IMG/VR virus record: IMGVR_UViG_2751185968_000006
Strand: one strand, 5' to 3'
Source of the DNA: a virus
Taxonomy: Duplodnaviria > Heunggongvirae > Uroviricota > Caudoviricetes
Length of the DNA stretch: 12,040 nucleotides
Part shown: positions 1 to 8,530 of the stretch, piece by piece
Layout of the letters: every line of letters starts with the position of its first letter
Numbering within the stretch: the first letter of the stretch is position 1
Position numbers and translations under genes: made by a program
The notes under the pieces: model-generated
What the model was told of the DNA's origin: nothing
The model's input: only the letters and a program-made list of their open reading frames with translations
Database searches by the model: none

Positions 1-188
1 CCATTCATGGCCATATCAATGATTTTCTGGTGCGTACCGGGCTGAGAGGCGGTGTAAGTGAACTGTAGTTGCCATGTTTTACGGCAATGAGAGCAGAGAT
101 AGCGCTGATGTCCGGCAGTGCTTTTGCCGTTACGCACCACGCCTTCAGTAGCGGAGCAGGAAGGACATCTGATGGAAATGGAAGCCAC
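1..188 (-). CDS. insA: IS1 InsA transposition protein, N-terminal part (gene runs off the window edge)
   Basis: Minus-strand translation from GTG at 188-186 gives [62 protein letters not shown], near-identical to canonical InsA as recalled. The supplied 5..217 ORF is a different frame. Confidence 0.8.
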
Positions 189-243
189 GCAAGCACCTTA
201 AAATCACCATCATACACTAAATCAGTAAGTTGGCAGCATTACC
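1..243 (-). mobile_element. IS1-family insertion sequence, partial; continues beyond the left window edge, terminal inverted repeat ends at 243
   Basis: Reverse complement of 232-243 is GGTAATGCTGCC, followed by AACTTACTGATTTAGTGTATGATGGTG, matching the IS1 left terminal repeat as recalled. The insA reading frame follows on the minus strand. Confidence 0.85.
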
Positions 244-2605
244 AATTAACGGAGGGTATCAGTACATTGAAATGAATGGTACCGCAGAATACTCAGTATT
301 AAATGACGGTTATCAAATTGTTCAAATGGGTGGCGCGGCAAACCAGACTACCCTCAATAATGGTGTGCTACAGGTTTATGGCGCAGCGAATGATCCCACG
401 ATTAAAGGCGGGCGCTTAATCGTTGAAAAAGATGGGATTACCGTCCTTGCCGCTATCGAAAAGGGAGGATTACTGGAGGTTAAAGAGGGGGGATTAGCGA
501 TTGCGGTAGATCAGAAAGCAGGCGGTGCTATTAAAGCAAGCACGCGGGTCATGGAGGCATTCGGAATAAACCGTCTCGGTCAGTTCGAAATCAAGAATGG
601 TATTGCTAACAATATGCTGTTGGAAAACGGCGGAAGTTTGCGAGTTGAAGAAAATGACTTCGCTTATAATACTACTGTAGATAGTGGCGGCTTACTGGAG
701 GTTATGGATGGCGGGACTGCAACTGGCGTTGATAAAAAAGCAGGCGGAAAATTAATTGTCTCAACGAATGCGCTGGAAGTGAGTGGTACAAACAGTAAAG
801 GCCAATTTAGTATAAAAGATGGTGTGTCAAAAAATTATGAACTGGATGATGGTTCCGGGCTCATTGTTATGGAGGACACGCAGGCCATTGATACTATCCT
901 TGATGAGCATGCCACTATGCAATCGCTGGGAAAGGATACTGGTACGAAAGTGCAGGCAAATGCGGTATATGATCTCGGTCGATCAGACCAGAATGGAAGT
1001 ATCACGTATTCCTCTAAAGCCATCTCTGAAAATATGGTTATCAACAATGGCCGCGCTAATGTCTGGGCTGGCACAATGGTTAACGTGTCAGTCAGAGGGA
1101 ATGATGGCATTCTTGAGGTCATGAAGCCGCAAATAAATTATGCACCCGCTATGTTGGTGGGTAAGGTAGTGGTTTCTGAGGGCGCTTCTTTTAGAACGCA
1201 TGGTGCCGTGGATACCAGCAAAGCGGACGTTTCGCTCGAAAATAGCGTATGGGCCATCATTGCCGATATCACTACGACGAACCAAAACACCCTCCTCAAC
1301 TTAGCCAACCTTGCGATGTCTGACGCAAATGTGATTATGATGGATGAGCCAGTGACTCGTTCATCAGTGACGGCAAGTGCGGAAAATTTCATTACGTTGA
1401 CCACCAATACCCTGTCGGGAAACGGCAATTTTTATATGCGTACCGATATGGCTAATCATCAGAGCGATCAGCTCAACGTCACCGGTCAGGCAACAGGTGA
1501 TTTCAAAATATTCGTGACGGACACCGGTGCCAGCCCGGCAGCAGGAGATAGCCTTACACTGGTAACAACGGGCGGCGGTGATGCTGCATTTACGTTGGGC
1601 AATGCCGGAGGCGTTGTTGATATCGGTACGTATGAATATACCTTGCTGGATAATGGCAACCATAGCTGGAGTTTGGCAGAGAATCGCGCGCAAATTACCC
1701 CTTCAACCACTGATGTGCTGAATATGGCGGCCGCACAACCGCTGGTATTTGATGCAGAACTGGACACCGTGCGTGAGCGTCTTGGTAGCGTAAAAAGCGT
1801 TAGTTACGATACGGCGATGTGGAGTTCGGCAATTAACACCCGCAACAACGTGACCACTGATGCGGGAGCTGGTTTTGAGCAAACATTGACGGGCCTGACG
1901 CTCGGTATCGATAGCCGTTTCTCCCGTGAAGAAAGCAGTACAATTCGCGGCTTGTTCTTTGGTTACTCTCATTCTGATATTGGTTTTGATCGCGGCGGAA
2001 AAGGTAATATCGATAGCTATACCCTGGGGGCTTATGCCGGTTGGGAGCATCAGAACGGTGCCTATGTTGATGGGGTGGTGAAAGTTGACCGTTTTGCCAA
2101 CACCATCCATGGCAAGATGAGTAATGGGGCAACAGCGTTTGGCGATTACAATAGTAACGGCGCGGGTGCTCATGTTGAGAGCGGGTTCCGTTGGGTTGAC
2201 GGATTGTGGAGTGTTAGACCCTATCTGGCCTTTACCGGCTTTACCACAGATGGTCAGGACTACACGTTATCAAACGGCATGCGCGCTGATGTGGGAAATA
2301 CCCGGATATTACGCGCTGAAGCGGGAACGGCGGTAAGCTATCACATGGACCTGCAAAATGGTACGACGCTGGAACCCTGGCTGAAAGCCGCCGTACGTCA
2401 GGAATACGCCGATTCTAACCATGTGAAAGTTAATGACGATGGCAAATTTAATAATGATGTGGCTGGAACCCCTGGCGTTTATCAGGCTGGGATAAGGTCA
2501 TCGTTTACCCCGACGTTAAGCGGTCATTTGTCAGTCAGCTATGGCAATGGCGCAGGGGTAGAATCGCCGTGGAATACTCAGGCGGGAGTGGTCTGGACGT
2601 TCTGA
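230..2605 (+). CDS. AIDA-I/Ag43-type autotransporter adhesin, 5'-truncated by IS1 (probable pseudogene: no signal peptide, no credible start)
   Basis: 791-aa ORF with repetitive GG-x-L-x-V passenger-type repeats and a C-terminal beta-barrel-like domain ending in aromatic residues (VVWTF). The frame runs into the IS1 terminal repeat; the only start is a TTG at 230 inside IS1, with an in-frame stop at 218-220. Confidence 0.75.
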   Translation: MAALPINGGYQYIEMNGTAEYSVLNDGYQIVQMGGAANQTTLNNGVLQVYGAANDPTIKGGRLIVEKDGITVLAAIEKGGLLEVKEGGLAIAVDQKAGGAIKASTRVMEAFGINRLGQFEIKNGIANNMLLENGGSLRVEENDFAYNTTVDSGGLLEVMDGGTATGVDKKAGGKLIVSTNALEVSGTNSKGQFSIKDGVSKNYELDDGSGLIVMEDTQAIDTILDEHATMQSLGKDTGTKVQANAVYDLGRSDQNGSITYSSKAISENMVINNGRANVWAGTMVNVSVRGNDGILEVMKPQINYAPAMLVGKVVVSEGASFRTHGAVDTSKADVSLENSVWAIIADITTTNQNTLLNLANLAMSDANVIMMDEPVTRSSVTASAENFITLTTNTLSGNGNFYMRTDMANHQSDQLNVTGQATGDFKIFVTDTGASPAAGDSLTLVTTGGGDAAFTLGNAGGVVDIGTYEYTLLDNGNHSWSLAENRAQITPSTTDVLNMAAAQPLVFDAELDTVRERLGSVKSVSYDTAMWSSAINTRNNVTTDAGAGFEQTLTGLTLGIDSRFSREESSTIRGLFFGYSHSDIGFDRGGKGNIDSYTLGAYAGWEHQNGAYVDGVVKVDRFANTIHGKMSNGATAFGDYNSNGAGAHVESGFRWVDGLWSVRPYLAFTGFTTDGQDYTLSNGMRADVGNTRILRAEAGTAVSYHMDLQNGTTLEPWLKAAVRQEYADSNHVKVNDDGKFNNDVAGTPGVYQAGIRSSFTPTLSGHLSVSYGNGAGVESPWNTQAGVVWTF

Positions 2606-3109: not shown

Positions 3110-3287
3110 CCGAAAGAATCAACGGGTTAGGCCTTAATGGGCTGCGTGGTAATTATCAGCATCCAGAATATGACGGGTTATGTTTCCGACCTCCTCAATT
3201 TGAGGTTCCCGAAAATATCAACGGGTTAGGCTGGTTTCCCCGATGTTCGCCGCTGGCGAATTTCGAAAATATCAACCAGTTACCGCC
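3110..3287 (+). repeat. Three direct copies of a ~22-bp motif (consensus near CGAAAATATCAACGGGTTAGGC) in a non-coding stretch at the element boundary
   Basis: Copies at 3110-3133 (CCGAAAGAATCAACGGGTTAGGCC), 3208-3232 (CCCGAAAATATCAACGGGTTAGGCT) and 3262-3287 (TTCGAAAATATCAACCAGTTACCGCC). A palindrome CCTCAATTTGAGG lies at 3193-3205. Confidence 0.5.
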
Positions 3288-3561
3288 GCAACCGCTCCGG
3301 CTTCTTCCAGTGGTATGTAATTTTCTCCGTTTCCCGATACAGTGCCACGCGGCGATTGTAGGCCAGCATTTCAAGAACGCGGATCCGTATGTTGCGCATA
3401 TCCACATCATTAAGCTGGATACCATCACGGCGCATCACCTCAGCAACAACACGCGCATAATTTTCGGCTGTCACGCTGTCCGGCTGCGTGGCCTGTTCGT
3501 CAGTCTGCTGGCTGATTCCACCAGCACGGCGGATTAATCCCAGTATTTCGGCTTCTGTCAT
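3280..3561 (-). CDS. Hypothetical protein (93 aa), last gene of the satellite-like element
   Basis: ORF with ATG at 3561 preceded by an AGGTG Shine-Dalgarno 4 nt upstream. No recognisable family. Confidence 0.5.
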   Translation of the reverse strand: MTEAEILGLIRRAGGISQQTDEQATQPDSVTAENYARVVAEVMRRDGIQLNDVDMRNIRIRVLEMLAYNRRVALYRETEKITYHWKKPERLRR

Positions 3562-3595
3562 TGTGCACCTATCGTTCTGATTGTCTGGTGTCGTC

Positions 3596-3780
3596 GGGTC
3601 CTTCCTGGAATTATGGACCCGTTACGGGGCGGCGACCTCGCGCGTTTTCACTATTTATGAAAATTTTTCGGGATCCATGTCCGGTTTCTCTACAAGTTAA
3701 CCATATGAAAAATATAAAAACATGCTTTCCATGAACCGGACATGCGCAAAAAACAGACACTAAAACCGGACATCGAACCA
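3596..3780 (+). other. Lambda-type cos site, copy A (plus orientation): cosQ-like flank, cosN, and cosB-like region with three ACCGGACAT repeats
   Basis: GTTACG at 3621-3626 then GGGCGGCGACCT at 3627-3638 (the 12-nt lambda cohesive-end sequence), then CGCGCGTTTTCACTATTTATGAAAATTTT resembling the lambda left end as recalled. Repeats: CATGTCCGG 3676-3684 (inverted), ACCGGACAT 3735-3743 and 3765-3773. Confidence 0.6.
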
Positions 3781-3841
3781 GTTAACCGAAAGTGTGCACA
3801 AATCACATGCATTGCTGCGAGTGATTAACAAGTTATCGGCT

Positions 3842-4276
3842 TTACTGTTCTGTATCGGCTGATTGCTCCATGCTGGCACGGCGAACGCTTACGGCATGAC
3901 GCCACCCAGCCAGAAAGCCAGCCATTTTATTTCGTGCCTTGCTCACATCTTCCGGTGAATAGCCGTAAATCTGCAAACCTTCATCAAATCGATGTTCTGT
4001 TTCTTCACTGGAGTACTCGTCACGCTCAGATGAAAGCAGCCTGGCAAACATAATTTTTTCCAGCGCACTGGTTTCTACGTGATATCTGATGGCCTCAAGA
4101 CGGCTTTTACCTGAAGACCAAAGCAATGTATGCCCGATGTGATAACCGCCAGACTTTCCGCGATCCGCATTAAGATACGGCATCCCCTGTTTGGTCCATG
4201 CGCGAATAGTGGTTCTGTTAACCTTGAAATGTTCAGCTATTTCCTGCTGACTTACAAAACAAGCTTTATCAATCAT
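3842..4276 (-). CDS. Terminase small subunit-like protein (lambda Nu1-type N-terminal HTH), 144 aa; candidate packaging-redirecting (Rpp-like) protein
   Basis: N-terminus QQEIAEHFKVNRTTIRAWTKQGMPY resembles lambda Nu1 KKQLADIFGASIRTIQNWQEQGMPV (from memory). It is shorter than Nu1, sits about 90 bp downstream of cos copy B on the same strand, and no large terminase gene is present. Confidence 0.7.
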   Translation of the reverse strand: MIDKACFVSQQEIAEHFKVNRTTIRAWTKQGMPYLNADRGKSGGYHIGHTLLWSSGKSRLEAIRYHVETSALEKIMFARLLSSERDEYSSEETEHRFDEGLQIYGYSPEDVSKARNKMAGFLAGWRHAVSVRRASMEQSADTEQ

Positions 4277-4343
4277 AATGTTACCTTAACTGCATGGTTA
4301 AATATTAATCAAGTGGTGGTGGTGTCACCTTCACGGAAAAACG

Positions 4344-4407
4344 TCATAAATAGCGAAAACCCGCGAGGTCGCCGCCCCGTAACGGGCCATAATTCCAGGA
4401 AGGACCC
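4344..4407 (-). other. Lambda-type cos site, copy B (minus orientation), immediately upstream of the TerS-like gene; inverted relative to copy A
   Basis: Minus-strand reading is GGGTCCTTCCTGGAATTATGGCCCGTTACG-GGGCGGCGACCT-CGCGGGTTTTCGCTATTTATGA; cosN lies at 4366-4377. About 64 bp are near-identical to copy A (3596-3660) in inverted orientation. Confidence 0.65.
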
Positions 4408-4409
4408 GC

Positions 4410-4431
4410 AAAAAAGCCGGATTTCTCCGGC
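4410..4431 (-). terminator. Rho-independent terminator-like hairpin after the 137-aa gene; copy 1 of a thrice-repeated hairpin
   Basis: Plus strand AAAAAA-GCCGGA-TTTC-TCCGGC (stem 4416-4421 / 4426-4431). On the minus strand the hairpin is followed by T6. Confidence 0.45.
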
Positions 4432-4437
4432 CTTGTC

Positions 4438-4851
4438 TCAGATGGTTTTCAGTATGCGATCGATGTCGCCGTCATCGCCTGGGTTTCTGCCATCGTATGC
4501 CATGCCAGCTGATACGGTTTGTGGGCTGTGCATGTCCATAAAGTTTTCAAAGGCTGCGGTAAGCTCTGGTGCAACCTTCGGGCGTTCCTGCTCTATGGTC
4601 ATGTTCAGGATGTTTTTAGCCGTATCAACATCGATACAAGGCACGTTTGCCATTGCACGCAACAGCGGCTGATAGTCTTTATGCTCATGAAGCGCCATAA
4701 TCGCATCAGCGCGCGGCTTGTCCTGCTCTTCCAGTTTGTTGAGTTGATATACGGCCTCGTAGGTTGATAAACCTCTGTCAGCCATTGCCCGCGCTTCGGC
4801 TTTAAATTTACTCGCCAGCGGTAGCGCCATGATGCTTTCATTCGTTGCCAT
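4438..4851 (-). CDS. Hypothetical protein (137 aa) between decoration-like gene and cos; possible head or packaging accessory protein
   Basis: ORF with ATG at 4851 and a GGGGGA Shine-Dalgarno sequence. Position matches a capsid/packaging module; no family recognised. Confidence 0.5.
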   Translation of the reverse strand: MATNESIMALPLASKFKAEARAMADRGLSTYEAVYQLNKLEEQDKPRADAIMALHEHKDYQPLLRAMANVPCIDVDTAKNILNMTIEQERPKVAPELTAAFENFMDMHSPQTVSAGMAYDGRNPGDDGDIDRILKTI

Positions 4852-5178: not shown

Positions 5179-6234
5179 TTAACCAATTTTGACGGTAACA
5201 AATTTGCGAATATCTGCCGGAACCGGCTGCGGTGCGCTGTGTGTCTGCACGTACTCAATCGCCGGATCGCCGTCCTCAATCCAGTTTTTCGGGTAGTACA
5301 TGTTTTGCGTTGCGCCCGTTCTTACCGCTTCCTGATCCATAATCGCACCATAGGCCACCAGCCCTTTATTGTTGGTGTTGCCCAGGACCAGCAAATCAGG
5401 CTCAAGGAAATATTTTTCGGTGCCGTCGCTGTCAGTGTATTTGCCGGAATAGACAATAAGAGCAATATCGCCCAGATAGCCTTTAAAGCTCACCACTTCG
5501 CCCAGGTTTTTACAGGCCATTTCTGCGGCGGATTCTGAACCACGGGAAAGATCGTACAGTTCACGGAATTTTTTAAAGCTGCGTAACGTGCGCCATACCT
5601 CAGCGCCCATAATCATGACGTTGGCGGGGCAACCTGCCTGATCTGCGTATAGTTCGATGTCATAGATTGGATCGTAAATATCTTTATCATGCTCGGACCA
5701 TTTTTTGCCGTCGGACTGCTCTATGATGTTTTTTTCCGGTATCTTCCAGTCGATTTCATAGCGTTCTATGCCTTCGCCCTCAATGATGTTTTTTCCGGTC
5801 GTTACCGCATTCACCGCCAGCCATTCCACGCGTGCCTTAATGGCGTTTATCTGGCGGCGCATGTTGCCAGTAATCAGGCGCATACGGCGATAGGTAGGGT
5901 CGTTAAGCTGTGCCGGATCTTCTCCAGCCATGCGCATGATGGTTTTCGTTGGATCGATTTCGTGCTTTGGCTTCATGTAGCCAGGTTTGATTGTGCTGGT
6001 TTCGTACCCTTTATCGCGCTGAACCTGGCTACCCACCATAGGCGAACAAAACGCCGACATGGTGACTTCTTCAATGTCCAGGGTATCCAGCATGATGTTT
6101 TGCGTGCTGAATGTCGCCACGTTCGGGAAAAACAGCGTGGTAAACAGAGGGCTGAATTTAAAATCCGCAATATCCCCGCGATTCAGGTACATAAAAAGCT
6201 GGTTAGTGTTAAGTGCCGTTGCTTTGCCTGCCAT
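5179..6234 (-). CDS. Major capsid protein, lambda gpE family (351 aa)
   Basis: Collinear similarity to lambda gpE as recalled: FKFSPLFTTLFF vs FKFDPLFLRLFF, PGYMKPKHEIDP vs PGYVKPKHEVNP, DPTYRRMRLITGNMR vs DPAYRRRRIIMQNMR, YKGYLGDIALIVYSG vs YKGMYGDVAIVVYSG, YPKNWIEDGDPA vs YPKNWVTTGDPA. Confidence 0.9.
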   Translation of the reverse strand: MAGKATALNTNQLFMYLNRGDIADFKFSPLFTTLFFPNVATFSTQNIMLDTLDIEEVTMSAFCSPMVGSQVQRDKGYETSTIKPGYMKPKHEIDPTKTIMRMAGEDPAQLNDPTYRRMRLITGNMRRQINAIKARVEWLAVNAVTTGKNIIEGEGIERYEIDWKIPEKNIIEQSDGKKWSEHDKDIYDPIYDIELYADQAGCPANVMIMGAEVWRTLRSFKKFRELYDLSRGSESAAEMACKNLGEVVSFKGYLGDIALIVYSGKYTDSDGTEKYFLEPDLLVLGNTNNKGLVAYGAIMDQEAVRTGATQNMYYPKNWIEDGDPAIEYVQTHSAPQPVPADIRKFVTVKIG

Positions 6235-7734: not shown

Positions 7735-7982
7735 AATTCCACCTCTCCGGTTTTAACGTTGATGGTTGTTACCTGTTCCGCTTCGGCAATCTCCCGTTCT
7801 GTCAGCGTGGCAAAGTTTGCCGCCGCCGTGGTCATGAATGCGCTTATCAGGTCGGGATGTTCCTTCGCGTATCCTTCCCGCGTGTGGCGGTCTATCGTTC
7901 TGATTGCCACCTTTAAGGTGTGCTCAGTCATGTCTAACGCTTTATATTTTGGCTCTGTTCTGTCTCTGCGTTTTTGGGTCAT
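7731..7982 (-). CDS. Hypothetical protein (83 aa from ATG 7982; the supplied ORF extends to a GTG at 8012)
   Basis: ORF translationally coupled to the SSB-like gene. The upstream extension overlaps the iteron array, so the ATG at 7982 is the more likely start. Confidence 0.45.
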   Translation of the reverse strand: MTQKRRDRTEPKYKALDMTEHTLKVAIRTIDRHTREGYAKEHPDLISAFMTTAAANFATLTEREIAEAEQVTTINVKTGEVEL

Positions 7983-7993
7983 TTCTCGCAACC

Positions 7994-8181
7994 TCTCACT
8001 TTTTCGCCTCACTTTTTCAAGCGTCTCACTTCGTCGCAGTTGGGATTTTCGGTTTTTCTATGTGTGTGTTTTATAAGTATTTTTTTACCCCTCACTTTTG
8101 AGGATGTATACAGGTCGAAAAGTGAGGGAGAGCGGGCTAATTTTGGCCCTCTTTCTATCCCCCTCGCTTTTGCTCCTCACT
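7994..8181. repeat. Iteron array and AT-rich region: putative satellite origin of replication, immediately downstream of the replication gene
   Basis: Seven copies of CCTCACTTTT-like motifs: CTCACT at 7995-8000, 8008-8013, 8025-8030, 8091-8096 and 8176-8181, an inverted copy at 8118-8127, and a variant CTCGCT at 8163-8168. An AT-rich stretch lies at 8041-8087; copies 4 and 5 form 12-bp inverted arms 16 bp apart. Confidence 0.5.
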
Positions 8182-8182
8182 T

Positions 8183-8530
8183 TTATAGCGGCGCTACATC
8201 ATCCCCATCGATACTAATAACCCCATCTTTTTCCAGCTTGTACAGCCAGCGCCGGAAGTTTTTCATTTCATACCCCAGCTTTTTCATGTCATCACGTAAC
8301 AGCGGGATCGTGCACTTGTCGCCGTTCTGTGTGCGTGAACGGATGCACCCCCATAGCGCGGTATGGTTTTCCGTCTTGTTCCCTGCCTCCTCGATGCGCT
8401 CCAGTTCAACAGGAGGGCGCGGATCATCCACCACCACCAGCGACGTGATTAATTCACCGTCAGCGTCGGTAAAAAGCTCCACCACGCGTAAGTCATATGC
8501 GGCTTCTTTGAGTTCCTCCGCGTCCTTCAT
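8183..8530 (-). CDS. Replication protein, C-terminal fragment (second piece of a frameshifted primase/helicase-type gene)
   Basis: This frame stays open upstream of the annotated ATG to about 8638 and there encodes DESARGSSAFRASLDAEY, the expected continuation after the HHSGKD motif of RecA-like replication ATPases. Confidence 0.6.
   Translation of the reverse strand: MKDAEELKEAAYDLRVVELFTDADGELITSLVVVDDPRPPVELERIEEAGNKTENHTALWGCIRSRTQNGDKCTIPLLRDDMKKLGYEMKNFRRWLYKLEKDGVISIDGDDVAPL

Follow-up and report, generated by a model that had tools for sequence, protein, structure and literature searches.

The 12,040-nt stretch of DNA analysed here (hereafter the window; IMG/VR record IMGVR_UViG_2751185968_000006) is a phage-inducible chromosomal island (PICI) of the EcCICFT073 type, with 98% identity to CFT073. 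Positions 3500-4500 share 98-99% identity with 83 complete E. coli genomes, and their counterpart in CFT073 (1,387,434-1,388,429) lies within the phoQ-adjacent island to which the Penades laboratory gave the name EcCICFT073; most copies of the island differ from one another by less than 2%. Both cos regions of EcCICFT073 are printed in Fig S1A of Fillol-Salom et al. (2019; PMC6739421), and matching to that figure identifies the two cos copies of the first-pass annotation, copy A being the published cos2 and copy B the published cos1. The site studied here thus carries the published cos2 sequence of the EcCICFT073 family of cos PICIs, adjoins rppA and stands opposite an inverted cos1. The island, both of its cos sites and RppA are already known. 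The ACCGGACAT repeats beside cos2 are discussed in neither of the two Penades papers (PMC6092414, PMC6739421), which took lambda, phi80 and CFT073 phage 4 as the sole comparisons for the island, judged its cosB completely divergent from these, identified no phage cosB in it and left open the reason why some PICIs have two cos sites; cos2 is not mentioned by Murialdo and Feiss (2022; PMC9026076).

The cos end of the island is adjoined in the window by a large AIDA/pertactin/autotransporter ORF (YejO-like; 230-2605, plus strand), and the corresponding flank in CFT073 is phoQ, so the window copy differs in cargo or chromosomal context. A lambda E-like major capsid protein (Pfam Phage_cap_E, E = 3e-51) is encoded at 5179-6234 (minus strand), and a 137-aa protein at 4438-4851 (minus strand) matches positions 494-567, towards the C-terminus, of the head maturation protease family PHROG 53, the region where lambda has the Nu3 scaffold. 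In the RefSeq annotation of CFT073, a head decoration protein lies between the homologues of the capsid and Nu3-like genes. EcCICFT073 has been stated to lack capsid morphogenesis genes, and c1499/c1500 to be without phenotype (PMC6092414). The elements of the two cos sites are collected in Table 1.

Table 1. Elements of cos2, rppA and cos1 in the window. Bp are counted from the cosN nick, with window 3627, where the cohesive end begins, as position 1.
Feature	Window coordinates	Bp from nick	Strand	Remarks
cosQ core GGGTCCT of cos2	3596-3602		+	cosQ of Fig S1A in PMC6739421; conserved in all aligned phage cos
cosN 12-base cohesive end GGGCGGCGACCT of cos2	3627-3638		+	identical to lambda bp 1-12, phi4 and PhiR12_1
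R3-like site CATGTCCGGTT	3676-3686	50-60	+	inverted copy; invariant in 12 distinct cosB variants
I1-like element	3698-3724		-	IHF-consensus-like core plus A/T-rich tract 5' of the core
IHF-like core TTTCATATGGTTA	3698-3710	72-84	-	two mismatches to WATCAANNNNTTR; consensus-level match only
R2-like site AACCGGACATG	3734-3744	108-118	+	inverted relative to R3; 1/11 positions variable among the 12 variants
R1-like site AACCGGACATC	3764-3774	138-148	+	direct with R2; 1/10 scored positions (bp 138-147) variable
Second AGTTAACC	3780-3787		+	overlaps the end of the phage homology (~3783)
rppA (redirecting phage packaging protein), 144 aa	3842-4276		-	between the two inverted cos sites; c1503/RppA of PMC6739421
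cos1 (copy B)	4277-4408		-	equals 'EcCICFT073 cos1' of Fig S1A, PMC6739421
cos1 parts	cosQ 4401-4407; cosN 12-mer 4366-4377; Rpp-specific cosB 4277-4330		-	directly upstream of rppA

The 12-kb window contains just three exact copies of ACCGGACAT, at 3677-3685 on the minus strand and at 3735-3743 and 3765-3773 on the plus strand. The first-pass annotation had described three 9-bp copies to the right of cosN, and these are real and non-random, but its first copy, read as CATGTCCGG at 3676-3684, was displaced by one nucleotide. The unit that the copies really have in common extends over 10-11 nt and reads AACCGGACAT(G/C); the R3-like copy and 3734-3744 form a perfect inverted repeat of 11 nt, and the sequence of 3734-3743 recurs at 3764-3773, at an interval of 30 bp. 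The window was shuffled 500 times with its dinucleotide composition preserved, and as just 3 of these shuffles gave any 9-mer three times (on either strand) within 100 bp, the cluster is not a chance event. The sole other 9-mer cluster flagged by the shuffle test consists of iteron-like direct repeats of (T)CCTCACTTTT at 7973-8184 (three 17-nt copies spaced 83-85 bp apart, plus partial copies), which lie near replication genes and are probably the island replication origin. The AGTTAACC motif is present exactly twice, as had been noticed; its first copy (3695-3702) overlaps the IHF-like core, beside which 12 of 14 upstream positions are A/T, and its second copy (Table 1) is matched in none of the aligned phage cos regions.

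The presence of two cos copies is confirmed by the inverted arms at 3595-3673 and 4331-4408, which are 88-96% complementary. Beyond bp ~40 the cosB of cos2 shares no sequence with cos1, and no ACCGGACAT-like motif is found in cos1, in agreement with the first reading that copy B lacks the repeats. The 144-aa ORF between the two sites matches RppC (PDB 6HLK; E = 5e-31) and is thus RppA, the N-terminus of which matches positions 12-52 of phrog_57 (terminase small subunit).

When window 3660-3841 was compared at high sensitivity with 50,697 phage records, the search revealed five isolated phages, PhiR12_1 to PhiR12_5, propagated on K-12 or E. coli C, that match 3660-3773, and with it all three repeats, at 97.4%. 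In PhiR12_1 the matching stretch lies between Rz and a Nu1-type small terminase (TerS) gene. Island and phage are homologous over cosQ, cosN and the sequence up to ~10 bp beyond the third repeat, and the similarity stops there, near 3783; between cosN and the last repeat the identity is 97%. A cosB of the cos2 type is also present in 1185 of 5426 complete E. coli genomes (about 22%), mostly at 80-90% identity. In all ten prophages inspected (two from O157:H7, one each from EPEC E2348/69, O45:H2 and CFT073, and five from other strains), as in PhiR12_1, the last repeat ends 49 bp upstream of the gene for a 169-aa TerS (WP_000235436.1), which in the ten prophages is followed by the TerL gene. The phage version of R1 forms part of a near-palindrome (AAACCGGACATGACCGGTTT), its palindromic character being due to an overlapping, R3-oriented near-copy (CATGACCGGTTT), and it is this half that is degraded in the island. 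Literature searches on PhiR12 and on the motif strings brought up nothing of relevance.

The proposal that the layout resembles the R sites of lambda cosB is borne out by the geometry (Table 2), since R3 and R2 lie within 4 bp of their positions in lambda, the 21 type and the Monarch type, are inverted in the same way and have an IHF-like core between them. R3 and R2 occupy the same positions with the same inversion across four cos classes whose motifs are unrelated or only partly related, and the IHF-consensus-like core, on the minus strand and preceded by an A/T tract, stands at bp 72-84 in cos2 and at bp 74-86 in lambda, phi4 and the Monarch type. As in the complex cosB of lambda-like phages, the repeats directly follow a lambda-type cosN on the right, cosQ precedes that cosN, there are three motif copies with R3 at ~50-60 and an inverted R2 at ~110-120, and in phages the block precedes a Nu1-family TerS gene, with covariation of motif and DNA-binding domain (see below). 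The departure concerns R1, the variable element among the four classes, which in cos2 is not oriented like R3 and instead runs direct with R2, 30 bp away.

Table 2. Positions (bp from the cosN nick) and orientation of the R sites, and start of the TerS gene, in four lambda-like cos classes.
Class	R3	R2	R1	TerS start
cos2 and PhiR12	core 50-58 (+)	110-117 (-)	140-147 (-)	196 (phage)
lambda	core 53-59 (+)	114-120 (-)	155-161 (+)	191
21-type (CFT073 phage 4)	core 53-60 (+)	112-119 (-)	153-160 (+)	189
Monarch/N15-type (E. albertii prophage)	51-59 (+)	110-118 (-)	188-196 (+)	229

The lambda cosB (R3-I1-R2-R1, bound by gpNu1) has the same cosQ and cosN as cos2, near-equal distances of R3 and R2 from the nick and the same inversion, and it too lies immediately upstream of a Nu1-family TerS gene (start at bp 191 versus 196), whereas its R motif CGTTTCC is unrelated to AACCGGACATG, its R1 is inverted relative to R2 at a distance of ~41 bp, and the recognition helix of its TerS differs from that of WP_000235436.1. 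The phage 21-type cosB has the same three-site architecture and a motif, C(A/G)TGTCGG, that resembles CATGTCCGG and is one extra C apart from it; its register is shifted by 1-3 bp, however, its R1 is oriented oppositely to that of cos2, and the spacers of the two types cannot be aligned. The Monarch/N15 cosB, another lambda-like specificity class, has a distinct motif (GGTTGTTGT) in the R3/R2 positions of cos2 and an R1 much further out (188-196), and it has also been captured in a related island variant (see below). Within the island itself, cos1 and cos2 have the same cosQ and cosN and are both cut by phage terminase, but the cosB of cos1 is short and island-specific, has just one R3-PICI, which Murialdo and Feiss (PMC9026076) proposed at bp 48-65, and needs the RppA-TerS heterodimer, whereas cos2 has a full three-site phage cosB and would need no Rpp.

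WP_000235436.1 matches phrog_57 over its full length, including positions 12-52 that are matched by the winged helix of RppA, and its match to Pfam Phage_Nu1 is confined to the C-terminal half. Its N-terminal ~60 aa have no tblastn counterpart in the TerS proteins of lambda, 21, 434, N15 and Gifsy-1, a sequence search of the PDB returned no relative, and the N-terminal 70 aa gave only a sub-threshold match to sigma-70 region 3 against Pfam. In an alignment with lambda Nu1, TerS-21, a Monarch-type TerS and RppA, the protein keeps the helix-turn-helix-wing pattern, with a recognition helix of its own. Together with the PHROG profile match, this alignment assigns it to the Nu1 family. Comparison of the Monarch-type TerS (locus 1129-1632) with the PhiR12-type TerS (locus 3163-3669) shows C-terminal halves that are almost identical from ~residue 95 and N-terminal DNA-binding domains that are unrelated, and, judged by its sequence, this pair is a clear domain-swap mosaic. 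The Monarch-type TerS, with its other N-terminal domain, goes with the other R motif (GGTTGTTGT) at the same R3/R2 positions, and such covariation of motif and TerS is expected if the N-terminal domain reads the repeats. The comparison came from a TerS scan of one genome per species (GTDB), which yielded only four loci, none of them with the same N-terminal domain outside E. coli, and so gave no wider covariation series. The cognate binder of the repeats is likely to be WP_000235436.1, from another lambdoid phage group, and not RppA.

Among 12 distinct cosB variants, which are closely related so that the footprint is weak as a test and counts as supporting evidence and not as proof, 2 of 32 positions vary in the repeats versus 20 of 66 in the spacers (Fisher p = 0.009), and in the R2-R1 half of the same variants the figures are 2 of 21 versus 16 of 31 (p = 0.0025). 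The block at bp 61-95 is also strongly conserved among them. A prophage of O157:H7 strain F3113 (locus 664-830) has lost exactly 30 bp, that is one repeat interval, so that two R sites remain, and the adjoining TerL gene is frameshifted; the loss is consistent with unequal crossing-over between R2 and R1. Feiss has reportedly proposed unequal crossing-over as the origin of the N15 cosB, which the F3113 deletion resembles.

Position, conservation, gene linkage and covariation together make the reading of the repeats as R sites well supported, and, from this sequence evidence, we put the probability that the ACCGGACAT repeats are TerS R sites of a phage-type cosB at roughly three in four. The same reading had been offered from the letters of the window alone, and the occurrence of the same sequence in phages directly upstream of a Nu1-family TerS gene strengthens it. 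The three repeats would then be the R3, R2 and R1 of a complete lambda-type cosB (cosQ, cosN, R3, IHF bend, R2, R1), and the cosB of cos2 would constitute a packaging-specificity class separate from those of lambda, 21 and N15/Monarch, with WP_000235436.1 as its cognate TerS.

Published genetics bear on whether cos2 is used by the island. Both island cos sites support plasmid transfer by lambda and phi80 (PMC6092414), and in transfer of the island itself by these phages deletion of cos1 lowers transfer, deletion of cos2 raises it and the double deletion abolishes it (PMC6092414). As the double deletion abolishes transfer while the cos1 deletion only reduces it, cos2 must be cleavable and packageable, and as the cos2 deletion raises transfer, cos2 is costly with lambda and phi80 as helpers. 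That cos2 serves packaging of the island by PhiR12-type helpers is a tentative reading, to which we would give somewhat less than an even chance.

The surroundings of the island in CFT073 (NC_004431.1, 1,328,000-1,445,000) bear on the same question, as it lies there between two lambda-like prophages and all three elements share cosN. The potB-adjacent prophage, ~10 kb from the island, encodes WP_000235436.1 and has a cos2-type cosB with one mismatch in R2 and one in R1. The icd-adjacent prophage was considered as a cos2-type phage and rejected, being phage 4, with a 21-type TerS and the cosB sites CGTGTCGG, CCGACATG and CATGTCGG. In CFT073, deletion of prophage #4 abolishes island transfer and deletion of any other prophage has no effect (PMC6092414), so the resident potB prophage is an insufficient helper under mitomycin C; it may be defective, or it may fail to induce the island (alpA). 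A second cos2-type cosB copy is found in 37 of 51 island-bearing records versus roughly 20% of other genomes, a co-residence figure that is confounded by clonality and in which the second copy is verified in CFT073 only.

A second, more diverged island variant (the B771 type), present in 46 genomes (with an arrangement covering at least 80% of the query), has neither rppA nor the cos1 cosB; it carries the ACCGGACAT cosB in one slot and, in the other, a complete Monarch/N15-type cosB (three copies of GGTTGTTGT; ~89% identity to the cos of an E. albertii prophage) that ends just past its own R1. In B771 (locus 1430-2045) the ACCGGACAT-type cos lies next to the Nu3-like gene, in an orientation relative to the flanking genes opposite to that of the window, both cosN copies read GGGCGTCGACCT, and what is left of rppA is a short piece of its 3' end, inverted, between the cos copies. 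In the Ch1 island (locus 1440-1660), likewise among the more diverged variants, the cosN of cos2 reads GGGAGTCGAACC, with four changes in 12 bp, the sequence flanking it and all three repeats are intact, and cos1 is normal; these changes may inactivate cleavage at cos2, and the Ch1 island suggests either decay of cos2 or selection to silence it in some backgrounds.

The main rival reading, which we consider unlikely, is that recombination with a lambdoid prophage at the shared cosQ-cosN left cos2 behind as a relic without function, kept only because the island lineage is young. The dispensability of cos2 for transfer by lambda and phi80 and the gain on its deletion (PMC6092414), the lack of effect of deleting CFT073 prophages other than #4 (PMC6092414), the decayed cosN of Ch1 and the near-identity (>98%) of most island copies would all fit such a history. 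A relic accords poorly with the diverged variants (B771 and Ch1), in which changes have accumulated in the spacers flanking R2 and R1 while each of the three repeats is perfect, with two independent captures of different cosB types that both end just past R1, and with the retention of a cos2-type cosB in both island types (83 and 46 genomes), and the outcome of the double deletion set against that of the cos1 deletion shows a site that can still be cleaved and packaged (PMC6092414).

Binding of the repeats by the island's own RppA, alone or together with a helper TerS, is improbable. In its favour are the Nu1-like winged helix of RppA and the short distance, no more than 70 bp, from the repeats to the rppA stop codon, and the 144-aa protein had been put forward in the first-pass annotation as their possible binder; the cosB-swap experiments argue against this. 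RppA stimulates plasmids with cos1 and not those with cos2 (PMC6739421), and in cosB-swap chimeras the RppA response comes from the cos1 cosB only (PMC6739421), which largely refutes the case of lambda TerS with RppA and, on these published results, places cos2 outside the Rpp-specific island cosB (R3-PICI). Moreover, about a thousand prophage cos regions have the repeats without any rpp gene, and always with WP_000235436.1. The swap results uphold the broader suggestion that each cos copy has a recognition protein of its own to recruit, as the cos1 cosB is a substrate of RppA-TerS and the cos2 cosB is not (PMC6739421), and as RppA is active only as a heterodimer with phage TerS it is not a stand-alone satellite TerS. 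That the repeats are operator or promoter elements for the 93-aa gene (3280-3561, minus strand) or for rppA is very improbable. In its favour, they lie in the 280 bp that separate rppA from the next gene of the same orientation; against it, no sigma-70-like promoter was found on either strand of 3562-3841, and phages with neither of the two island genes retain the identical block, always equally far from cosN and from the start of TerS. An RNA reading of the repeat region was rejected, there being no Rfam match.

Returning to the R-site reading, we use the packaging mechanism of lambda as an analogy (summarized in PMC4669245). The two winged-helix domains of a TerS dimer would occupy the inverted R3 and R2, which an IHF-induced bend would bring together, binding and bending both being extrapolated from lambda, and R1 would add affinity or cooperativity. 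TerL anchored in this way would nick cosN ~50 bp away, and packaging would proceed rightwards (plus strand), from cosN towards cosB. The island would have captured a PhiR12-type cosB, from cosN to just past R1, as its cos2, inverted relative to the Rpp-dependent cos1, and would thereby have two packaging routes, one from cos1 through RppA-TerS heterodimers with helpers of the lambda, phi80 and 21 types, and a second from cos2 through the unmodified terminase of PhiR12-type helpers, with no need of Rpp. As the two cos sites face in opposite directions, each would yield its own set of unit ends from the concatemer.

More broadly, EcCICFT073-type islands may possess an exchangeable two-slot cos cassette, made up of two inverted cos sites with cosQ and cosN in common and with a cosB for a different helper class in each slot, in which the repeats provide a fourth lambda-like specificity and cos2 widens the range of helpers, a possibility that we hold at somewhat under even odds. 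One slot may hold an Rpp-dependent cosB that hijacks the TerS of lambda-, phi80- and 21-type phages, and the other slots would hold exact copies of phage cosB (of the PhiR12 or the Monarch type) for the native terminases of other lambdoid phages; the B771-type variant supports this modular view of the cos slots. SaPIbov5-type islands of Staphylococcus carry a copy of the helper's cos and are packaged by unmodified phage terminase, and the cos2 island would resemble them as a satellite with the helper phage's own cos; theirs is another cos family (HNH-dependent) in another host, and they are not known to have a second, Rpp-type cos site. Transfer of SaPIbov5 by helper cos phages has been described (PMC6092414).

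The literature searched appears to contain no description of this cosB class, of its R motif or of the connection with cos2, and cos2 would represent a further lambda-like cosB specificity captured by a PICI. Its cosB is a near-exact copy of that of a very common group of lambdoid prophages, those of O157:H7, E2348/69 and CFT073 included, and offers a candidate fourth packaging-specificity class for comparative studies of DNA recognition by terminases. If the two-slot reading is true, cos2 would explain why some PICIs have two cos sites, since it would reach phages whose TerS cannot be bound by Rpp. This gives a testable explanation for the second cos site and a prediction of which phages can spread these virulence-associated islands.
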